Shown in pieces: positions 797 to 22,512 of a stretch of DNA of 32,000 nt. The position numbers were made by a program, and so were the translations under genes. This DNA is from a virus. The stretch's first letter is position 1, and each line of letters begins with the position of its first letter. The notes below the pieces were generated by a model. The model saw only the letters and a list, made by a program, of their open reading frames with translations. It searched no databases and had not been told where the DNA came from. The stretch covers positions 327,683-359,682 of the IMG/VR virus record IMGVR_UViG_3300017971_000185; one strand, given 5' to 3'.

Positions 797-1184
797 CGCC
801 TGTTTCGACCGGTGGCGCGCGCGACAAGCGCAGATTGCCCATCTTCTGACGCGGCTGGAGGAAGAGGCCGCGGCTCAGGCGATGCTTCTGGAGGGGTTGC
901 GAACTGTTTGGGTGAAACGTGGGTATAGTTTCTCGAAGCTGCGTTTTTCTGCCTATACAACGCAGGAAAGGAGAGACGCGATGTCCAAGATCAAGGTGAT
1001 TCGCGTCAGCGCCACCGAATTCGAGACCGAAGATGGCAAGGTCTTCCCCCACCCGATCCCCTTCCAAGACGGCAAAGTCCCGTCCGTCGAAGAATTCCAG
1101 GCGATCCACGACCAGTGGCGGGAAATCTTTCAATCCCAAGGACTCCTCCCAGGAGCGCCTCCTGGGCCCGGGAAAGACCGCTGA
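783..1184 (+). CDS. hypothetical protein; an internal start at 981 is at least as likely
   Basis: Strong SD AAGGAG 8 nt before ATG 981 (MSKIKVIRVSATEFETEDGK...). Protein-like sequence and GC3 decay after about 1135, where it overlaps tnpA out of frame, so the C-terminus may have been replaced by the IS insertion. Confidence 0.4.
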   Translation: MLDIDACFDRWRARQAQIAHLLTRLEEEAAAQAMLLEGLRTVWVKRGYSFSKLRFSAYTTQERRDAMSKIKVIRVSATEFETEDGKVFPHPIPFQDGKVPSVEEFQAIHDQWREIFQSQGLLPGAPPGPGKDR

Positions 1185-1779
1185 GCTTCTCGGCGTCCAC
1201 ATCAGCACTCTCCGCCGATGGGACGAAGACGGCACCCTGGAGGCCGTCAGGACACCCGGAGGATGGCGAAAATACCGCCTCTCCGACATCGAAAGGTTCC
1301 AAGGCCGAGAATCTCCTGAACGTGAAAAACAGGAGATTCGGGCGGTCGCCTATTGCCGGGTCAGCAGCCACGACCAGAAACAAAAAGGAGACCTCGAACG
1401 CCAGTCAGATCGCGTCGTCGCCCACGTCGCCCGCCAAGGCTACAAGCTGGTGGACGCACTCGAAGAAGTCGGCTCGGGAATGTCGGATACGAGACCGAAG
1501 CTCCATCGGCTGTTCAAGCTAGTGGGCGATCACGAGGTCGATGTCGTGGTCGTCGAGCACAAGGACCGCCTGTGCCGGTTCAATTTCGGTTTCCTCCAAG
1601 CGTACTTCCAGAGCCACGGGGTCGAGGTGGAGTGGATCGAGGATGTGCTCGGTAGAAGCTACGAGGAGGAACTTGTGGAGGACATGCTGTCGTTGATGTC
1701 GAGTTTCTCGGCTCGCATCTACGGCAAGCGCAGCGCGGAGAACCGTCGCAAGAAACGAAAGAAGGAGAAAGCAGCATGA
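1033..1779 (+). CDS. tnpA: IS607-type serine recombinase transposase (MerR-like HTH plus resolvase catalytic domain)
   Basis: HTH LLGVHISTLRRWDEDG..RTPGGWRKY and catalytic-Ser motif AVAYCRVSSHDQK. Only in-frame ATG/GTG/TTG upstream of the HTH is ATG 1033, so the start is uncertain. Confidence 0.8.
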   Translation: MARSSPTRSPSKTAKSRPSKNSRRSTTSGGKSFNPKDSSQERLLGPGKTAELLGVHISTLRRWDEDGTLEAVRTPGGWRKYRLSDIERFQGRESPEREKQEIRAVAYCRVSSHDQKQKGDLERQSDRVVAHVARQGYKLVDALEEVGSGMSDTRPKLHRLFKLVGDHEVDVVVVEHKDRLCRFNFGFLQAYFQSHGVEVEWIEDVLGRSYEEELVEDMLSLMSSFSARIYGKRSAENRRKKRKKEKAA

Positions 1780-2291
1780 CTCCAGCACAGAAGATTCTGA
1801 AAGAGATCAAGGAACAAGGCGTCATCAGGAGACTCAATGTCATCGTGAAATGCGACGGCCCATGGTCTCCTGTGCGAGTGTCCGGGACCGTGCTCCAGTG
1901 GGTCACGCACGAGGTAGCTGAGGTGTGTCGTCAGGACACCGACGAATTGGGTTACGCTTTCCTCGCACCAACCCGCGATGGGGGAGGCTGGTGGTGGCGA
2001 CGGTGGGACGAGGAAACGAAGTCCAAGTTGAGGGCCGCTGCGGAACACGGGTTCCGCGTCCAGATCAACCGGGAACTGGGGTGCCTGGAATTCCGTGCTG
2101 TCGAGAAAGCTCAGGAGCAGGCCCTCCGGGATCTGAAAGACCGCAACGAACGTGAAATGCTTCTTCGCATGAGAGGTGAGAAGCTTTTCGGGAAGATCGC
2201 CGAGGAACTCAACGTGTTCTTCCCGGAGGAACGCACCAGGGAGACGTGGGTGCAGATCTGCGTTGCTCTCGCTCTCGCGGAAGGGAAATGA
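1776..2291 (+). CDS. hypothetical protein between tnpA and tnpB (possible C-terminal HTH)
   Basis: ATGA overlap with the tnpA stop; good GC3; C-terminal segment GEKLFGKIAEELNVF..ERTRETW looks HTH-like. Confidence 0.6.
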   Translation: MTPAQKILKEIKEQGVIRRLNVIVKCDGPWSPVRVSGTVLQWVTHEVAEVCRQDTDELGYAFLAPTRDGGGWWWRRWDEETKSKLRAAAEHGFRVQINRELGCLEFRAVEKAQEQALRDLKDRNEREMLLRMRGEKLFGKIAEELNVFFPEERTRETWVQICVALALAEGK

Positions 2292-2503
2292 CAATGACCA
2301 CCTTCAAAGATCTTGATGACGTGCAGCTTCTTCAGGCGCTCCAAGATGCCGAGAACGAGGCACAACGTATTCGGCAGGAGATCCGATTCCGTGGTGTTTC
2401 AAGATACGGCTCGCTGTTTGATGCTGTCGGAGACGCCACCCGTGAAGCACTTGACTGGCCATCCATGATGGAGCGGTCTCGGAAATCTGAACTGGACCGA
2501 TGA
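2288..2503 (+). CDS. small hypothetical (coiled-coil-like) protein
   Basis: ATGA overlap with the upstream stop (2288-2291) and with the tnpB start (2500-2503). Confidence 0.55.
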   Translation: MTMTTFKDLDDVQLLQALQDAENEAQRIRQEIRFRGVSRYGSLFDAVGDATREALDWPSMMERSRKSELDR

Positions 2504-3927
2504 AGAAGTCTCGTCACCTCTACCTCCACCCGGAGACCAATCCGGGCAAGATTGCCGCCCTGGAGGCCCTTCACGTCGAGTACGTCAGGTACGTGCGCAT
2601 CTGCGTGCAGATCATGCTCGACAACCAGAGGCTCTCCCTCAAACGGTCGGAGAAGCAAGTCTTCTTCCCGAAGGCCGAGAACCTCACCAGCCAGATCCAG
2701 AAGAACGCCCGAGACCACGCCATCCAAATCGTGAGTACGTGGGCCAAGGCCACCTACGAGCGTGCCGTCAAGAAGCACCTCACCCGAGCACACAGGTTCG
2801 GCCAACTTTCCCAGGACGAACGACACGCCCTCTGCACGGTTGGAAAGCACCTGATCTCAGTGCCTTGGAAGCACGTCACCCAGGAGACCATCGACGCCTA
2901 CTGGGCACTCCTGCTCGACCCAGAGGTCTCTGGTAACCAGCCACGGGTGTCCGAACGCATCCCGATGCGGATGTCGGAGAACACATGCACACTGGCCGAC
3001 ACTGACGAGGCCATCCACGCTCCCATGTGGATCAAGATTTCCACGCTGGTCAGCCGGAAAGTCGTCTGGCTTCCGCTCGCAGGGAATCCCTACGTCAAGT
3101 CGGCCAACGACGTGTCGAAGGGAGTCCACGCAAGGAAAGACAAGCGTGGGCGCTGGAGGTTCGAGGTTGTTGAACGCAAGGAGTGGATCGTTCCCGAACT
3201 TCAACCCGATGCGCCCAGGATCGGTGTCGATGTCGGCCTGAACGTCGTGGCCGCCACCTCGGATGGCCGGACGTTCGGAGCAAGTCTCAAACCCAAGTTC
3301 GACCGCCTCTACGAGCGCGTCAGGAACCTTCGTGCGAACCGTCAACGACAGGGTTTCAAGGAGAACAGCCCTCGGCTCAACCGGCTCGAAGACAAACTCA
3401 CCAGGATGGTAAAGACGATCACCGGGGAGGTGGCCAACAGGCTCATCAAGAGCGCACCCGAAGGCACGGTTTTCGTGATCGAAGACTTGGACCTGCGTGG
3501 GTGCCGTGGTCAGAAGAGGTTCGCGTACCGGGCCCTGGCCCACAGCTTGGAGACGAAAGCGCCCACCTTGAAGGTGAATCCGGCGTACACGTCTCAGACT
3601 TGCCCTTCCTGTGGTTACGTCTCTCGACGTAACCGATCAGGAACCGATTTCGTCTGCCGCTCATGTGGCAGGCGTTCTCATGCCGACGTGGTGGGAGGGA
3701 TCAACCTGCTGAGACGTTCTCAGGACGAACAGGTTGACCTCAACGATCACCATCGAGACGTGAGGGAGTTGCTGCGAAAACGATACCGGGCCCGTAGGGC
3801 CGGGGACAGTTCCGCAGGACTCTGCCGAAAGGCACCCGCGCCTGAACCGTCAGGCCGGAGGCTCACTACCGGAGTATCTCCCCCGAGGAGAGGACGGCAC
3901 AGCCTCGAATCCGATGCTTACCTTTGA
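2500..3927 (+). CDS. tnpB: TnpB (OrfB) RuvC-type RNA-guided nuclease, catalytic residues apparently intact
   Basis: RuvC-I IGVDVGLN, RuvC-II VFVIEDLDL, zinc ribbon CPSCG..CRSCG, RuvC-III HADVVGGINL; 475 aa. Confidence 0.9.
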   Translation: MKKSRHLYLHPETNPGKIAALEALHVEYVRYVRICVQIMLDNQRLSLKRSEKQVFFPKAENLTSQIQKNARDHAIQIVSTWAKATYERAVKKHLTRAHRFGQLSQDERHALCTVGKHLISVPWKHVTQETIDAYWALLLDPEVSGNQPRVSERIPMRMSENTCTLADTDEAIHAPMWIKISTLVSRKVVWLPLAGNPYVKSANDVSKGVHARKDKRGRWRFEVVERKEWIVPELQPDAPRIGVDVGLNVVAATSDGRTFGASLKPKFDRLYERVRNLRANRQRQGFKENSPRLNRLEDKLTRMVKTITGEVANRLIKSAPEGTVFVIEDLDLRGCRGQKRFAYRALAHSLETKAPTLKVNPAYTSQTCPSCGYVSRRNRSGTDFVCRSCGRRSHADVVGGINLLRRSQDEQVDLNDHHRDVRELLRKRYRARRAGDSSAGLCRKAPAPEPSGRRLTTGVSPPRRGRHSLESDAYL

Positions 3928-6928: not shown

Positions 6929-7014
6929 TGGTCGGTATGCAAGAGGTTAAAGCAAGCAGTCTGTAAAACTGCCGCGTTCGCGCTTCGTGGGTTCAAATCC
7001 CTCCCGGCCAGCCA
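6929..7014 (+). tRNA. tRNA-Tyr(GTA), class II, CCA encoded
   Basis: Acceptor TGGTCGG/CCGGCCA, anticodon loop CTGTAAA, variable arm CGCGTTCGCGCTTC, T loop TTCAAAT (one T-stem mismatch). Confidence 0.8.
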
Positions 7015-7040
7015 GATTCGGAGTAGAAAGGAGAAGAAAC

Positions 7041-8216
7041 ATGACACAGAAGCAGCACATCAACGTAGGAACCATCGGACACGTGGACCACGGGAAGACC
7101 ACCCTCACGGCGGCCATCACGATGGTCATGGCAGCGATCAACGGAGGCGAGATCAAGACCTTCGATCAGATCGACAAGGCGCCCGAGGAGCGTGAGCGAG
7201 GAATCACAATCAACACGGCGCACGTCGAGTACGAGTCGGAGACTCGCAACTACGCGCACATCGACTGCCCAGGCCACGCCGACTACATCAAGAACATGAT
7301 CGTCGGTGCGTCCCAGATGGACGGCGCGGTACTGCTTGTGGACGCTTCTCAGGGGCCGCAGCACCAGACGCGTGAGCACGTTCTCCTGGCGAAACAGGTG
7401 GGCGTCTCGCACATGGTGGTGTTCATCAACAAGGTGGATATTGCAGATCCCGAGATGCTGGAGCTTGTAGAGATGGAGGTTCAAGATGCTCTTGCCCAGA
7501 TGGGCTTCGAGGACACTCCGTTTATTCGGGGCTCCGCGCTCAAGGCACTGGAGGCCGCGAGCGAGGGGAAGATGGACGATCCCGAGATCGAGCCAGTCAA
7601 GGCGCTCATCGCCGCGATGGACGAGCACCTTCCGGTGCCCAAGCGAGATCGGGAGAGTCCGTTTCTCATGCCCATCGAGAATGTCCACACGATTCCAGGC
7701 AGGGGCACGGTCGTGACAGGTCGTGTGGAGAGGGGCATTCTCACCAAGGGGCAGACGGTGGAGATCGTGGGTCGGACGGACGGGAAGCCCCTGGCTGCGG
7801 TCGTCACGGGAATCCAAGCGTTCCACAAGGACATCCCCGAGGCGGCGGCGGGTCTCAACATCGGCATGCTCCTACGTGGCATCGATCGGGATGAAGTCCT
7901 GCGTGGTCAGGTAGCAGTTGCTCCTGGCTCCTTGCTTCCTCACGAGAAAGGCAAGGCCGAGATCTTCACACTCACAGCCAAGGAGGGTGGTCGTCACACT
8001 TCGTTCTCTGGCGGATACAGGCCACAATTCTACTTTGGCGCCACTGACGTGACTGCGGCAGTCGTGCCGGAGGATGGGAAAGTCGTCGAGCCTGGCGATC
8101 GGGCCACGGTGGACTTTGAGCTAGTGAGTCCGGTTGCTTGCGAGCCCGGCATGAGGTTCGCCATCCGCGAGGGTGGCAAGACCGTAGGTGCTGGGATGGT
8201 CACGGAGGTAGTCTAA
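7041..8216 (+). CDS. tuf: elongation factor Tu (divergent, N-terminally shortened)
   Basis: SD AAAGGAG then ATG 7041; [18 protein letters not shown] and NKVD GTPase motifs; 391 aa. The upstream part of ORF 6987-8216 is tRNA-Tyr read-through. Confidence 0.93.
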
Positions 8217-8243: not shown

Positions 8244-8330
8244 GCTCGAATGGCGGAATCTTCGGTAGACGCGCACGGTTCAGGTCCGTGTACCCTCACG
8301 GGTGTAGGGGTTCGAGTCCCCTTTCGAGCA
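8244..8330 (+). tRNA. tRNA-Leu(CAG), class II
   Basis: Acceptor GCTCGAA/TTCGAGC, anticodon stem CACGG/CCGTG, loop TTCAGGT, long variable arm, T arm AGGGG-TTCGAGT-CCCCT. Confidence 0.88.
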
Positions 8331-12266: not shown

Positions 12267-12944
12267 CTAGTACCTGTAATTCTTGTGTGGCTTGCGAACG
12301 CGCACGAGCCATTCGGAGTTGTTCTTCTCGTTCACGCCAGGCTTGAGAAGGCCGCCGGGGTCTTTGAGAACGAGACCTTCGATCTCATCCATGTCAACGA
12401 GCCGGTTGAAAAGCTCGCCTGCCTCATCGGCGTTGGCGGGAGTGAAGGTTTCAGCCAGCCAGACGTTCTGTGCGGCTACCAGAGCGACTTTCCGGCCCGT
12501 GTCCTCTTCGTACTTGGTCGGGTTCCCGAGCGTTTCTCGGAGCCGTGAGAGCCTCTCCTGGTAGGCCGTGCCCGTCAGGTAGCTCCCGTTGTGAACGAGG
12601 ATGTCCCAGAGCACGATCCGGTCTTTGAGGCTGACCGTTTTAGAGTGCAGGATTTCGCCATCGAATACCTGCCACTTTCCGCGCTCCAGGAGGTCGCTGT
12701 CAAGCAGAGACTTGAGTGCTTGATGCGTCTCCGGGTGCTCGTGAATCAGGTAGAGTTTGTGTTCCTCGCGGTGGCGGCTGCGAAGATGCACTTCGCCATC
12801 TGGATCGAGGAAGATAGTCGTGCGTGTCCCATTGAATTTGAATTGGGCCAGCCAGCCTGGAAATTTCCCCAAGTCGCGGGGGTGGACGGAGCCCTCCGGT
12901 CGTGGGGGCCACATCACAAACATCTTCTTGTATGGGATGCTCAT
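12267..12944 (-). CDS. minimal ATP-dependent polynucleotide ligase (nucleotidyltransferase domain only; DNA or RNA substrate unresolved)
   Basis: Motif I KFNGTR, III FDGEIL, IV EGLVLKD, V VRVRKPHK; only 225 aa, with no room for an OB domain. Confidence 0.7.
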   Translation of the reverse strand: MSIPYKKMFVMWPPRPEGSVHPRDLGKFPGWLAQFKFNGTRTTIFLDPDGEVHLRSRHREEHKLYLIHEHPETHQALKSLLDSDLLERGKWQVFDGEILHSKTVSLKDRIVLWDILVHNGSYLTGTAYQERLSRLRETLGNPTKYEEDTGRKVALVAAQNVWLAETFTPANADEAGELFNRLVDMDEIEGLVLKDPGGLLKPGVNEKNNSEWLVRVRKPHKNYRY

Positions 12945-14974: not shown

Positions 14975-15046
14975 GCTAGCGTAGCTCAACGGTAGAGCAG
15001 AGCACTTGTAATGCTCAGGTTGTCGGTTCAAATCCGACCGCTAGCT
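14975..15046 (+). tRNA. tRNA-Thr(TGT)
   Basis: Acceptor GCTAGCG/CGCTAGC, anticodon loop CTTGTAA, T arm GTCGG-TTCAAAT-CCGAC. Confidence 0.9.
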
Positions 15047-15059
15047 CAGAAAGGAGAAC

Positions 15060-15132
15060 GCCGCTGAAGCACAACAGGTCGTGCGTCTGATTCGTAATCA
15101 GGAGGTAGAGGGTTCGAGTCCCTCCGGCGGCT
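15060..15132 (+). tRNA. tRNA-Thr(CGT)
   Basis: Acceptor GCCGCTG/CGGCGGC, anticodon loop TTCGTAA, T arm GAGGG-TTCGAGT-CCCTC. Confidence 0.9.
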
Positions 15133-15144
15133 CAAGTTGAAATT

Positions 15145-15217
15145 GCCGATGTAGCTAAGTGGGAAGGCGCCGCCTTGGTACGGCGGAGATTCGTGGGTTC
15201 GATTCCCACCATCGGCT
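15145..15217 (+). tRNA. tRNA-Thr(GGT)
   Basis: Acceptor GCCGATG/CATCGGC, anticodon stem CCGCC/GGCGG, loop TTGGTAC, T arm GTGGG-TTCGATT-CCCAC. Confidence 0.88.
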
Positions 15218-15218
15218 C

Positions 15219-15368
15219 TGGGAGACACAGGATCTCGTTTCGAGGTCACAAGCACGGTAAGACGCAGCATTCATAACGCTGAGACTGTGGGTTCAATCCC
15301 CACCCCCGCTTTCATGGCGGGGTAGTCAAATCGCAAGAACACCTGACACACTCTCCTGTGTCCTCCCG
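15219..15368 (+). ncRNA. circularly permuted tRNA(CAU)-like module closed by a long helix with a bulged C (Y-RNA/YrlA-like candidate A)
   Basis: Order: D-3' half GGTAA-GAC, anticodon-like arm (loop TTCATAA), T arm GTGGG-TTCAATC-CCCAC, CCCCGCT, 5-nt loop, GGCGGGG, TA, D-5' half GTC-AAAT. Flanks 15220-15232 and 15354-15367 pair (13 bp plus 1 bulged C). Confidence 0.6.
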
Positions 15369-15412
15369 ACCCTTCCAGACTTCAACCCGCAACCCGAAAG
15401 GAGGACAATCTG

Positions 15413-21930: not shown

Positions 21931-22083
21931 TTGGTCAATGCCAACAGATCAACCTCACAAGCATCATGTTGGTTCGAGTCCAACCTCCCCCACCCATGGG
22001 GGAGTAGCCTAACTGGAAAAGGCACCAGACGTGTAAATCTGGCGTGTAAACGCAATCAAGGTTTCTCACTCGGCGTTGACCAA
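21931..22083 (+). ncRNA. circularly permuted tRNA-like module C (YrlA-like Y RNA candidate)
   Basis: Helix TTGGTCAATGCC (21931-42) / GGCGTTGACCAA (22072-83); T arm 21968-84; CTCCCCC-A-CCCAT-GGGGGAG (21985-22004); D arm GCC-TAACTGGAAAA-GGC; stems covary with module B. Confidence 0.65.
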
Positions 22084-22438
22084 GTTTTTCTCCCCGAGCG
22101 ACGGCGCTTTCGCCAACTCCGTCAGGACCGGAAGGTAGCAGCGGTAACGGAGGACCGGGTGCTCGGGGGAACGTTTCACCGAGCCGGGGTCGTCGGTGGG
22201 CGCTTATCGCCGCGGAGAGGCGTCTGATCCGGTTCCGGGGTTTGGAGTCGCGTCCAAACCTCGGGCCGGGGAACCCCGCATGATGATTTTCCTTGACCCT
22301 TTCTTGGAGGTTCGGCACACTCAACACATCGTAATCCCGAGGGCGGTCGCCCCATCTACGGAACCGGCCTCGAATCTCTAACCCCAACCAGAGCACGGAT
22401 CAGTGATGGACGACGACATTAGCGACATTATCCGACAT
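22084..22438 (+). ncRNA. unassigned about 355-nt GC-rich structured non-coding stretch
   Basis: No convincing ORF on either strand. Several strong local helices, e.g. TCCCCGAGC (22091-99)/GCTCGGGGGA (22161-70) and a 12-bp hairpin at 22235-22264. Lies between the tRNA-like array and tRNA-Ile. Confidence 0.3.
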
Positions 22439-22512
22439 GGGTTCGTAGCTCAGTTGGTTAGAGCGCTGCCCTGATAAGGCAGAGGTCGCTGGTTCAACTC
22501 CAGCCGAGCCTA
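22439..22512 (+). tRNA. tRNA-Ile(GAT)
   Basis: Acceptor GGGTTCG/CGAGCCT, anticodon stem CTGCC/GGCAG, loop CTGATAA, T arm GCTGG-TTCAACT-CCAGC. Confidence 0.88.

Follow-up and report, generated by a model that had tools for sequence, protein, structure and literature searches.

The 32,000-nucleotide (nt) stretch of DNA analyzed here (the window; IMG/VR virus record IMGVR_UViG_3300017971_000185, positions 327,683 to 359,682) contains a segment at 15220-15367 on the + strand, termed element C, that encodes an RNA of ∼148 nt. Judged by its sequence and predicted fold, this RNA is a complete tRNA body with a closed acceptor, the D loop of which is opened onto a basal module made of two helices, P1 and P2. 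Element C is best read as a novel topological variant of the tRNA-mimicking Y RNAs of the YrlA type, that is, as the gene for a stable non-coding RNA that would act as a tRNA-shaped scaffold or decoy, would form a YrlA-type ribonucleoprotein (RNP) with a Ro60-like protein and would not serve as a decoding tRNA. A probability of about one-half is assigned to this interpretation. By the sequence features that they share, element C is also paralogous to a more numerous group of permuted tRNA-like RNAs, referred to as A-type, two of which (modules A and B) lie in the same window.

The RNA encoded by element C comprises a 13-bp terminal helix, an intact CAU anticodon arm, a variable loop, a T arm, a 7-bp acceptor stem with a 5-nt loop, U8-A9 and a split D arm (Table 1), and every part that the original prediction had listed was recovered in place. 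In the minimum free energy (MFE) fold, hairpins form at the acceptor and at the anticodon, GAC pairs with GUC, and both the terminal helix and the T arm are present; the folding z-score was −3.35, and none of 200 shuffled sequences folded equally well. As a linear gene, element C gave no ARAGORN tRNA call at 15219-15368, and the Rfam tRNA model (RF00005) scored 27.5 bits, below its gathering threshold of 29, by way of a false acceptor. When 15331 was joined to 15256 in silico, ARAGORN returned a complete tRNA-Met(CAU), in agreement with the earlier description of a full tRNA(CAU) rotated such that the break lies in the D loop. All of the nucleotides responsible for tertiary contacts in tRNA are present, namely U8, G18G19, the T-loop, Y48 and the U-A/G connector, and the acceptor loop U-UCA-U can be assigned as N73, a degenerate CCA and a U at −1. 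No Rfam family reached its threshold on element C, and a literature search found no account of it.

Table 1. Features of element C and of related genes in the window, all on the + strand
Feature	Coordinates	Strand	Basis or remarks
tRNA-Thr(GGU)	15145-15218	+	ARAGORN; same neighbor at all C-type orthologs; third of three Thr genes
P1, 5′ strand of terminal helix	15220-15232	+	MFE fold; begins 1-2 nt after tRNA-Thr(GGU) 3′ end
Internal loop, 5′ side, UCUCGUUUCGA	15233-15243	+	Alignment A3; small local hairpin possible; no CGAA
P2, 5′ strand GGU	15244-15246	+	Pairs with ACC 15341-15343; invariant in C-type orthologs
Single-stranded C-ACAAGCA, family signature	15247-15254	+	Invariant in 5 orthologs; family equivalent in all 39 A-type modules
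D-loop 3′ half GGUAA (G18 G19 .. A21) and D-stem 3′ strand GAC	15256-15260 and 15261-15263	+	Invariant; pairs with GUC 15325-15327 in MFE fold
Anticodon arm CAGCA/UUCAUAA/CGCUG	15265-15281	+	4 Watson-Crick pairs and one A.C mismatch; U33; CAU at 15272-15274
Variable loop AGACU	15282-15286	+	Pyrimidine at position 48; A(G/A)ACU in all orthologs
T arm GUGGG-UUCAAUC-CCCAC, perfect	15287-15303	+	3/5 pairs covary; G53, U54, U55, C56, A58, C61 invariant
Closed acceptor stem, 7 bp	15304-15322	+	CCCCGCU 15304-15310, loop U-UCA-U 15311-15315, GGCGGGG 15316-15322
U8-A9, D-stem 5′ strand GUC and D-loop 5′ part AAAU	15323-15324, 15325-15327 and 15328-15331	+	U8 and GUC invariant
3′ joiner CGCAAGAAC	15332-15340	+	Matches family (R)ACGCAA motif; GACGCA or CGCAA in orthologs
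P2, 3′ strand ACC, and 3′ internal loop UGACACACUC with CACUC beside P1	15341-15353	+	CACC and CACUC invariant in C-type orthologs
P1, 3′ strand with bulged C (15362 or 15363)	15354-15367	+	MFE fold; ortholog alignment
630-aa helical-repeat and vWA (MIDAS) protein, Ro60-like, candidate partner	16173-18065	+	0.8 kb downstream of element C; Pfam VWA_2
Paralog A (A-type, opened in variable region, same basal module)	21731-21874	+	
Paralog B (A-type, opened in variable region)	21933-22081	+	

Orthologs of element C were found by way of the neighboring vWA protein and by DNA patterns; in IMG/VR, a loose pattern gave about 119 hits, mostly due to chance, and a strict pattern retrieved only L002 (= L179) and L035. 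The resulting set consists of five distinct sequences including the window copy, the others being located in loci whose vWA proteins are 86% (L266), 74% (L239 and L035) and 67% (L002) identical to that of the window. Each ortholog starts 0-2 nt past tRNA-Thr(GGU) and precedes tRNA-Asp. Aligned to a structure model of 32 pairs (alignment A3), the five sequences are paired in 98.8% of cells and show compensatory changes on both sides at 13 of the 32 pairs, values that were attained in none of 500 shuffles. Sliding the partner columns by 1-3 positions reduced pairing to 42-51% and double changes to 0-2 pairs. Covariation was observed at all five pairs of the anticodon stem, three of five in the T stem, three of seven in the acceptor stem and two of nine in P1, the remaining seven inner P1 pairs being invariant. 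A covariance model derived from the alignment (R1) scored the five orthologs at 148-168 bits and the next best of 95 related loci at 36 bits, and it detected no divergent C-type copies among these 95 loci. Further relatives reached through the vWA protein either lack a C-type element or end before its place. Given this conservation, the covariation and the separation achieved by the covariance model, element C can be regarded as a selected structured RNA.

All five orthologs, the window copy included, are valid tRNAs in ARAGORN once re-joined, and the products are of the Met(CAU), Glu(UUC), Lys(UUU) and Asp(AUC) types. The 7-nt length of the anticodon loop and U33 are conserved but the triplet is not: the CAU of the window, which the original prediction had named, is shared with L266 only, so that it is the arm rather than its identity that has been retained. 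A similar distinction applies to the terminal helix, for which a bulged C had been put forward as a hallmark of Y RNA. The helix is present and conserved, whereas the bulge is a C in the window, a G in L266 and absent from L002, L239 and L035, and the bulged C was rejected as a Ro signature on this ground. The acceptor loop is U-CCA-U in L266, from which the U-UCA-U of the window differs by one base, and G-CCA-(U/C)UUAU in L002, L239 and L035. Thus, what the family has in common in this loop is an encoded N73-CCA, after which a short spacer with A-U at its end leads to G+1, and N73-CCA is encoded in the acceptor loops of four of the five C orthologs and of most A-type modules.

Several other candidate features in and around element C were considered and set aside. 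A local mini D hairpin (GUC-N3-4-GAC) was rejected since its downstream GAC, which the window lacks, forms part of the conserved (G)ACGCAA joiner. In the 5′ internal loop (15233-15243), only a 3-bp YCU/AGG pairing is conserved, and the structure of this loop is hence uncertain; a 5′ hairpin (H1) was not retained as a conserved feature given that just 3 bp are conserved and that it competes with P2. Protein coding was likewise discarded: a 74-aa antisense open reading frame (ORF; 15046-15270) overlaps tRNA genes, and element C shows covariation of the RNA type. Separately, a structured segment, GGCAGGYGACCGGCGGCCUGUGGGUCCAACCGCCGAU, is conserved 3′ of the C-type element in orthologs (L002 1600-1700, L266 300-400). 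It is deleted at that place in the window, in which similar copies are located upstream of the 21.2-kb and 21.5-kb modules (21160-21200 and 21460-21500).

To define the A-type family, vWA-bearing loci were scanned with a descriptor that required a T arm preceded by ACAMGC and followed by an adjacent 7-bp hairpin. At least 39 distinct modules were identified, including A and B, in 2-4 tandem copies per genome (window, L009, L013, L020, L027, L194, L204, L209, L216, L218, L224, L225, L227, L229, L232, L235, L245, L266, L270-L272, L275, L276 and L278). The A-type RNAs are always found immediately 3′ of ThiF, at the end of a string of genes encoding the vWA protein, a ∼310-aa protein, (HNH), JAB, several small proteins and ThiF, and no Rfam family reached its threshold on these modules. 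In the full-length alignment of 27 of the 39 (A5), the consensus runs from a 10-bp P1 through an internal loop, a 5-bp P2 and an invariant CUYACAMGC to the T arm and a 7-bp acceptor hairpin, the loop of which usually opens A/G-CCA. It continues with U-A/G, a D arm and a 5-bp anticodon-like arm with a 6-8-nt loop, and closes with an (A)ACGCAA joiner, the P2 3′ strand, an invariant CACUCGG and the P1 3′ strand. Compensatory changes were observed at 27 of the 32 predicted pairs, including the 5-bp P2. When re-joined at the variable region, all 27 modules were called as tRNAs by ARAGORN with varied anticodons; four have anticodon loops of 6 or 8 nt instead of 7, and some loops lack U33.

Element C and the A-type modules share a basal module that includes P1, a 3′ loop ending in CACUC, P2, C-ACAAGCA and CGCAA. 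The AACGCAA or AAGCAA joiners of the A-type modules hold the same place as the element C joiner, and the G-C pair of P2 in element C is flipped relative to A-type. The tRNA body is attached to this module via the D loop in element C and via the variable region in A-type. Module A has an uninterrupted D arm, GCC-AAAUGGUAAA-GGC, as the counterpart of the split one of element C (GUC-AAAU ... GGUAA-GAC), and the acceptor stems of the two are nearly identical in the window. These data bear out the earlier proposals that element C is one of several permuted mimics in the window and that its D arm matches that of paralogous modules. The family is likely to have arisen by tandem tRNA duplication; the order 3′ half, N73CCA, spacer and 5′ half is that expected at the junction of two tandem tRNA genes.

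Two further structured loci were noted beside modules A and B. A tandem repeat of ∼300 nt (21164-21291 and 21464-21590) contains, in each unit, a 7-bp acceptor-like long-range helix (GCCGGAC/GUCCGGC and GGCGGAC/GUCCGCC) around hairpins, ACAAGCA and a T arm, a non-permuted layout that resembles the tRNA-like domain of transfer-messenger RNA (tmRNA) without CCA. Each unit is followed by a low-scoring tRNA (21321-21394 Ala-CGC and 21621-21693 Met-CAU) that uses an ACA(A/C)GCAAAG motif as its 5′ acceptor strand and has mismatches in the acceptor stem. A gene for a bacterial small signal recognition particle (4.5S-like) RNA, scoring 57.7 bits against a gathering threshold of 40, occupies 22085-22177 and starts 3 nt past the end of module B.

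The candidate partner for these RNAs is the 630-aa protein encoded downstream of element C. This protein has >1,800 homologs, on contigs up to 619 kb; the family has no annotated function and usually adjoins tRNA clusters. In Virus Rctr197k, a GenBank phage related at the protein level, the vWA gene follows a 37-tRNA cluster but no C-type element is present, and GenBank phages gave no DNA match either to the locus or to element C. From sequence, only a vWA/MIDAS domain is evident (residues ∼420-520), and searches with phmmer, Pfam, NCBIfam and PHROGs returned only VWA. The AlphaFold model, built with 55 homologs (pLDDT 82), consists of an N-terminal beta domain, helical repeats at residues ∼100-415 and the vWA domain. 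Foldseek comparison of this model with the PDB placed the Ro60 of Thermus phage phiLo first (9KOP, E = 8e-9), then 9L5Y, and also retrieved Xenopus Ro60 (1YVP, 1YVR and 2I91) with E values of 2e-6 to 6e-6. The Ro60 alignments extend over 535-565 columns, compared with ∼200 for matches to vWA alone, and the TM-scores are low (0.22-0.35). Matches in BFVD include a phage TROVE protein and DUF2828 proteins.

Profile comparisons of the 630-aa protein gave results that depended on breadth. With a narrow profile, only VWA matches were obtained in the PDB, and the hhalign probability against human Ro60 was 3.7%. With a broader profile, which included distant 500-570-aa relatives from a search of 1.84 billion proteins, human RO60 was the best PDB match (E = 7.6e-7), ahead of all other vWA proteins; the phiLo TROVE protein was matched at E = 0.053 over the helical part, and the hhalign probability against human Ro60 was 92.9%, on the vWA part only. 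The human Ro60 query sequence used with hhalign was checked against 9NEN and 1YVP. The distant relatives themselves gave no TROVE match. Taken together, the 630-aa protein is probably a member of the Ro60 family. Two published observations concern systems of this kind: the genes for two Y-like RNAs that the phiLo Ro60 binds lie just upstream of its own (PMC12135203), and TROVE proteins with “a tRNA-like partner” have been described as RNA-repair platforms in some jumbo phages (Iyer et al.; PMC7824862). In relatives of the window, RNA-ligase genes (RLIG1, RNA_ligase) are found near the vWA gene.

These observations can be accommodated by the following model. The element C RNA would be transcribed within a tRNA polycistron, and no promoter or terminator was identified between element C and the neighboring tRNA genes. 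Its 5′ end would result from 3′ processing of tRNA-Thr(GGU), and its 3′ end from trimming back to P1 by tRNA-processing enzymes. The RNA would then fold into an L-shaped tRNA mimic standing on the P1/P2 stalk; placement in the polycistron and the L-shaped fold are both well supported by the sequence data. The stalk would be bound by protein, for which the Ro60-like vWA protein is the best candidate, to give an RNP of the Y-RNA (YrlA) type. The sequence of the stalk is unusually conserved for a helix and carries the shared ACAAGCA, CACUC and CGCAA motifs, which points to a dedicated binding partner. RNase P may cut most of these RNAs at the acceptor loop, where a 7-bp stem and an N73-CCA are combined with a U at −1 and a G at +1; the N73-CCA encoded in these loops suggests such cleavage. 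A cut at A-U|G would yield a two-piece RNA with a free CCA end, as in the YrlA of Mycobacterium smegmatis. The tRNA-shaped head might then engage tRNA-binding factors, for example modification or repair enzymes or anticodon nucleases, during infection, and in this way serve tRNA surveillance or repair as a tether or decoy. The anticodon loop appears unconstrained for decoding, with four anticodons in five orthologs and 6- or 8-nt loops in some A-type modules. The Met/fMet, Glu, Lys and Asp tRNAs, which the anticodon loops imitate, are often attacked by anticodon nucleases, so that a role as a decoy or repair platform is attractive, though unproven.

A number of results count against assignment of element C to a YrlA-type RNP. 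On the RNA side, the Rfam YrlA model (RF02553) scored only 17.4 bits on element C against a gathering threshold of 69 and aligned no more than the T arm, the acceptor hairpin and GUAG, and the sequence of the basal module does not resemble that of any known Ro-binding helix. The motif GNCGAAN0-1G is absent, given that there is no CGAA in 15220-15260; in the orthologs, a near-match to it occurs only in L002 (GUUCGAAG), the others having UGAA, UGAG or ACAC. The known C-type orthologs number just five, and the D stem (GAC/GUC) and P2 (GGU/ACC) are invariant in them, so that this set provides no covariation test of either helix. In the window copy itself, UCA replaces CCA, the anticodon stem contains an A.C mismatch and the 3′ joiner has lost 2 nt, and this copy may therefore be under weaker constraint than its relatives. 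On the protein side, no Pfam TROVE match was obtained in the 55 homologs, and the likeness to Ro60 in sequence profiles is mainly confined to the vWA domain. The helical region alone (pLDDT 72) had no significant PDB match: the phiLo Ro60 ranked second (E = 0.17, probability 0.85), and the best TM-score, 0.35, was obtained with Rsr at E = 0.77.

The original prediction had offered two options, a Y-RNA-like decoy of tRNA-Met/Ile2 and a genuine permuted tRNA gene. The first is the better of the two, in view of the YrlA-like order of T arm, acceptor and UA and of the Ro60-like neighbor, although its specific form is not borne out, with UUC, UUU and AUC loops in the orthologs and the Ro-binding motif absent. 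A related possibility is a stand-alone tRNA decoy without a Ro60-like protein, which would soak up or sense tRNA-targeting host nucleases or tRNA-modifying enzymes with an anticodon loop tuned to the tRNA under attack. The shape of the anticodon arm is conserved while its identity switches among Met/fMet, Glu, Lys and Asp types, a closed acceptor would prevent aminoacylation yet preserve the tRNA shape, and there are several paralogs with different loops per genome, all of which would be in keeping with such a role. We nevertheless consider it unlikely, since it leaves the conserved P1/P2 stalk, the ACAAGCA, CACUC and CGCAA motifs and the CCA encoded in the acceptor loop unexplained, and no anticodon nuclease target is known for this host.

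The second option can be framed as a functional but unconventional tRNA, in which RNase P and 3′ trimming open the acceptor loop and the pieces either stay joined by pairing in the acceptor stem, the D stem and P1/P2 or are sealed at the D loop by a phage RNA ligase, before charging and use in translation, possibly with the phage EF-Tu. Such a tRNA would account for the valid ARAGORN calls in all five re-joined orthologs, the N73-CCA with U at −1 and G at +1 in four of the five, the genuine-looking anticodon loops with invariant U33 (UUCAUAA, UUUUCAC, CUAUCAC) and the slot that element C holds in a tRNA operon, and EF-Tu, ligase-like and Thg1-like genes are encoded within the window. It is, however, rather improbable. 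Identity shifts between Met, Glu, Lys and Asp among syntenic orthologs, with U37 in the Lys-like loop; UCA stands in place of CCA in the window copy; the phage already encodes ordinary tRNAs for these anticodons; and the A-type paralogs include 6- and 8-nt loops and loops without U33. In addition, the ∼60-nt stalk at the tRNA elbow would likely clash with the ribosome, and the junction has no bulge-helix-bulge (BHB) motif, with no bacterial or phage enzyme known for such splicing (PMC3978253). Given the lack of a BHB junction and of a stable identity across orthologs, element C is probably not a tRNA that needs ligation, contrary to what had been entertained. A version of this scheme that dispenses with ligation is more doubtful still. 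In it, huge phages would make split tRNAs by opening the acceptor loop with RNase P and a 3′ exonuclease, and the pieces, held by the P1/P2 stalk, would be charged and delivered by the phage EF-Tu; the stalk would protrude from the D loop (C-type) or from the variable-arm position (A-type), like the long arm of class II tRNAs.

An equally faint prospect is that element C is a cis-acting processing or regulatory element, either a spacer that directs cleavage by RNase P, Z or E or a control on an Asp-rich leader ORF and tRNA-Asp. Its fixed position between tRNA-Thr(GGU) and the Asp-rich mini-ORF with tRNA-Asp in all orthologs, and its lack of an independent promoter or terminator, would fit such a role. 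By contrast, the same basal module is found in paralogs of another operon, after ThiF and without such a leader, and a full tRNA body with its tertiary nucleotides exceeds what a spacer needs. The least credible alternative is a non-functional recombination scar or pseudogene of a tandem tRNA duplication, in which the 3′ part of a first copy is fused to the 5′ part of the copy after it: the order of the parts and the small lesions of the window copy (UCA, the A.C mismatch and the 2-nt deletion) are as expected for a scar, but five syntenic orthologs with vWA proteins 67-86% identical keep every helix through 13 compensatory pair changes, P1 is kept too although a tRNA duplication would not supply it, and the divergence of the orthologs excludes recent horizontal copies. 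On this sequence evidence, element C is not a recombination scar, and the absence or degeneration in close relatives that the original prediction had named as its refutation was not what was found.

The mini-ORF that follows element C (15397-15448; ribosome binding site aaaggagga, ATG at 15414) has an Asp-rich start, MPDDDDDDDRLP..., and reads directly into the tRNA-Asp(GUC) gene. Asp-rich leaders are located at the equivalent place in L002 (∼1743-1790, MNIENDDCDDVDD) and L266 (∼421-470, MPDDDDDDDV), and in the window a similar short ORF with Ile codons (22406-22438, MDDDISDII...) lies ahead of tRNA-Ile(GAU) at 22439. These mini-ORFs look like amino acid-matched leader peptides upstream of tRNA genes and might work through attenuation or be coupled to processing. 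An ORF of the endonuclease VII/HNH type (15644-16183) separates the tRNA cluster from the vWA gene; in L266 the same spot holds a different 211-aa gene with a faint and unreliable Pfam match to PDDEXK_5. Because the gene at this site differs in L266, the site may be an insertion hotspot for mobile nucleases.

The window as a whole has a G+C content of 58%, looks like part of a huge phage and contains 27 tRNA genes by ARAGORN. It is rich in genes for translation and tRNA metabolism, which encode an RNase T-like exonuclease (188-796), EF-Tu (6987-8216), a minimal ATP-dependent ligase-like nucleotidyltransferase (12267-12944, − strand), JAB and ThiF (19568-21047) and a Thg1-like 3′-5′ polymerase (31024-31824); an IS607-type serine recombinase and TnpB element is located at 1033-3927. 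JAB and ThiF are possibly an E1-like pair with a role in tRNA thiolation. The exonuclease, the nucleotidyltransferase and the Thg1-like enzyme also count in favor of the YrlA-type reading of element C. A probable additional tRNA-Leu(CAG) gene lies directly 3′ of the EF-Tu gene at 8244-8329, with acceptor strands GCUCGAA/UUCGAGC, D and T arms, a long variable arm and UUCAGGU as its anticodon loop; it was missed by ARAGORN and by Rfam at gathering.

To our knowledge, the tRNA-mimicking Y RNAs (YrlA) known from bacteria and a few phages have all been described as opened at the anticodon loop and encoded beside a recognizable TROVE/Ro60 gene. Here, a widespread group of huge phages carries RNAs that appear to keep the entire tRNA, with an anticodon arm and a CCA encoded in a closed acceptor loop, and that are joined to a shared stalk through either of two permutation points, the D loop (element C) or the variable region. 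The A-type and C-type RNAs represent a previously uncurated family of huge-phage RNA. If the vWA protein is their partner, the Ro60/Y-RNA system would extend into a large and previously unannotated protein family, and tRNA mimicry would be shown to be modular. In that case, the predicted RNase P cleavage, CCA end and variable anticodon loops would also provide a handle on the purpose of the tRNA domain of Y RNA, a question that goes back to 2014. The loci offer a natural experiment on the origin of permuted tRNA-like genes from tandem tRNA duplications. If the split-tRNA reading is true, working tRNAs would be encoded in a new way, and a bacterial virus would for the first time be seen to carry permuted tRNA genes.

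Among known systems, two-piece tmRNA genes of alpha-proteobacteria and cyanobacteria are comparable with element C in that the CCA-bearing 3′ acceptor/T-arm piece precedes the 5′ acceptor piece, and their processing gives two base-paired RNAs with a tRNA-like domain. Unlike element C, tmRNA lacks both an anticodon arm and a D stem; it depends on SmpB and combines a tRNA-Ala-like domain with pseudoknots and a reading frame for a tag. Assignment as tmRNA was rejected, as the window yielded no ARAGORN tmRNA, no Rfam tmRNA match at gathering and no tag ORF. Metazoan-type Y RNA has a conserved bulged helix, of which element C keeps the helix but not the bulge.

Permuted tRNA genes of Cyanidioschyzon merolae, other algae and Thermofilum pendens have a BHB (3-nt bulge, 4-bp helix and 3-nt bulge) at the leader/trailer junction and are spliced via a circular intermediate, the amino acid and anticodon not being conserved among organisms (PMC3978253). 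The order of parts in element C is the same as in these genes: leader, 3′ half, a short intervening sequence that closes the acceptor stem, 5′ half and trailer. In C. merolae Leu-UAA, the junction is in the D loop too (20/21). The intervening sequence of the algal and Thermofilum genes would be removed by RNase P and a 3′ nuclease, and in the C orthologs the intervening loop is 5-9 nt. By contrast, no BHB is present in element C, the junction of which is flanked by single strands of 9 and 12 nt, the 3-bp P2, an internal loop of 10-11 nt and the 13-bp P1, and the host is bacterial, without known splicing machinery of the algal or Thermofilum kind. The products of the permuted genes are normal aminoacylated tRNAs of fixed identity, whereas the anticodon of element C varies across syntenic orthologs (CAU, CAU, UUC, UUU and AUC); a stable decoding identity among close relatives was taken here as the mark of a working tRNA.

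The phiLo Yrl1/Yrl2 system is linked to the window through its phage Ro60 (9KOP, 9L5Y), the best structural match to the vWA protein. Its RNAs were found by the CGAA motif, are not described as complete tRNA mimics and have no sequence similarity to element C. YrlA itself (Rfam RF02553) was defined by the GNCGAAN0-1G motif, a proposed Rsr contact, by its V, T, AS and D elements and by its location beside rsr (Chen et al. 2014; PMC4201824). In the Rfam model, the T arm, acceptor hairpin, UA and D arm are enclosed by a 4-bp “anticodon” stem together with inner and outer stems, and YrlA is a true L-shaped mimic that is stabilized by tertiary contacts identical to those in tRNA (Wang et al. 2018, bioRxiv 312249). 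The D arm of YrlA is contiguous 3′ of AS; in element C, only GUC-AAAU is found there, with GGUAA-GAC 62 nt upstream, and its D arm aligns poorly to the Rfam model. The YrlA stalk leaves at the anticodon stem with no anticodon loop, whereas element C retains an anticodon arm of five stem positions and a 7-nt loop together with the variable loop, and its stalk leaves via the D loop; the stalk of the A-type paralogs, also unlike YrlA, leaves via the variable region. Furthermore, CCA is genome-encoded within the element C family's acceptor loop (UCA in the window), unlike in YrlA, and YrlA adjoins a gene with TROVE and vWA domains, whereas the neighbor here has no TROVE domain detectable by sequence. 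Element C was not filed in RF02553 because it departs from YrlA in the split D arm, the stalk position, the motif and the score.

In architecture, element C does resemble YrlA. A T arm with the tRNA T-loop consensus is followed directly by an acceptor-like hairpin and then by UA, the nucleotides of the tertiary contacts are kept, and the ends pair into a stalk with an internal loop. On modules A and B, the Rfam YrlA model scored 22.8 and 28.1 bits, with the T arm, acceptor hairpin, UA and D arm aligned. The YrlA of M. smegmatis, which has a 7-bp acceptor stem, is cleaved by RNase P and receives CCA in vivo (PMC4201824), and it is this RNA that element C recalls in its own 7-bp acceptor stem and apparent RNase P site with CCA. 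Finally, the gene lies near one for a helical-repeat and vWA protein that is predicted from its modeled structure to be Ro60-like, an arrangement that is reminiscent of YrlA.

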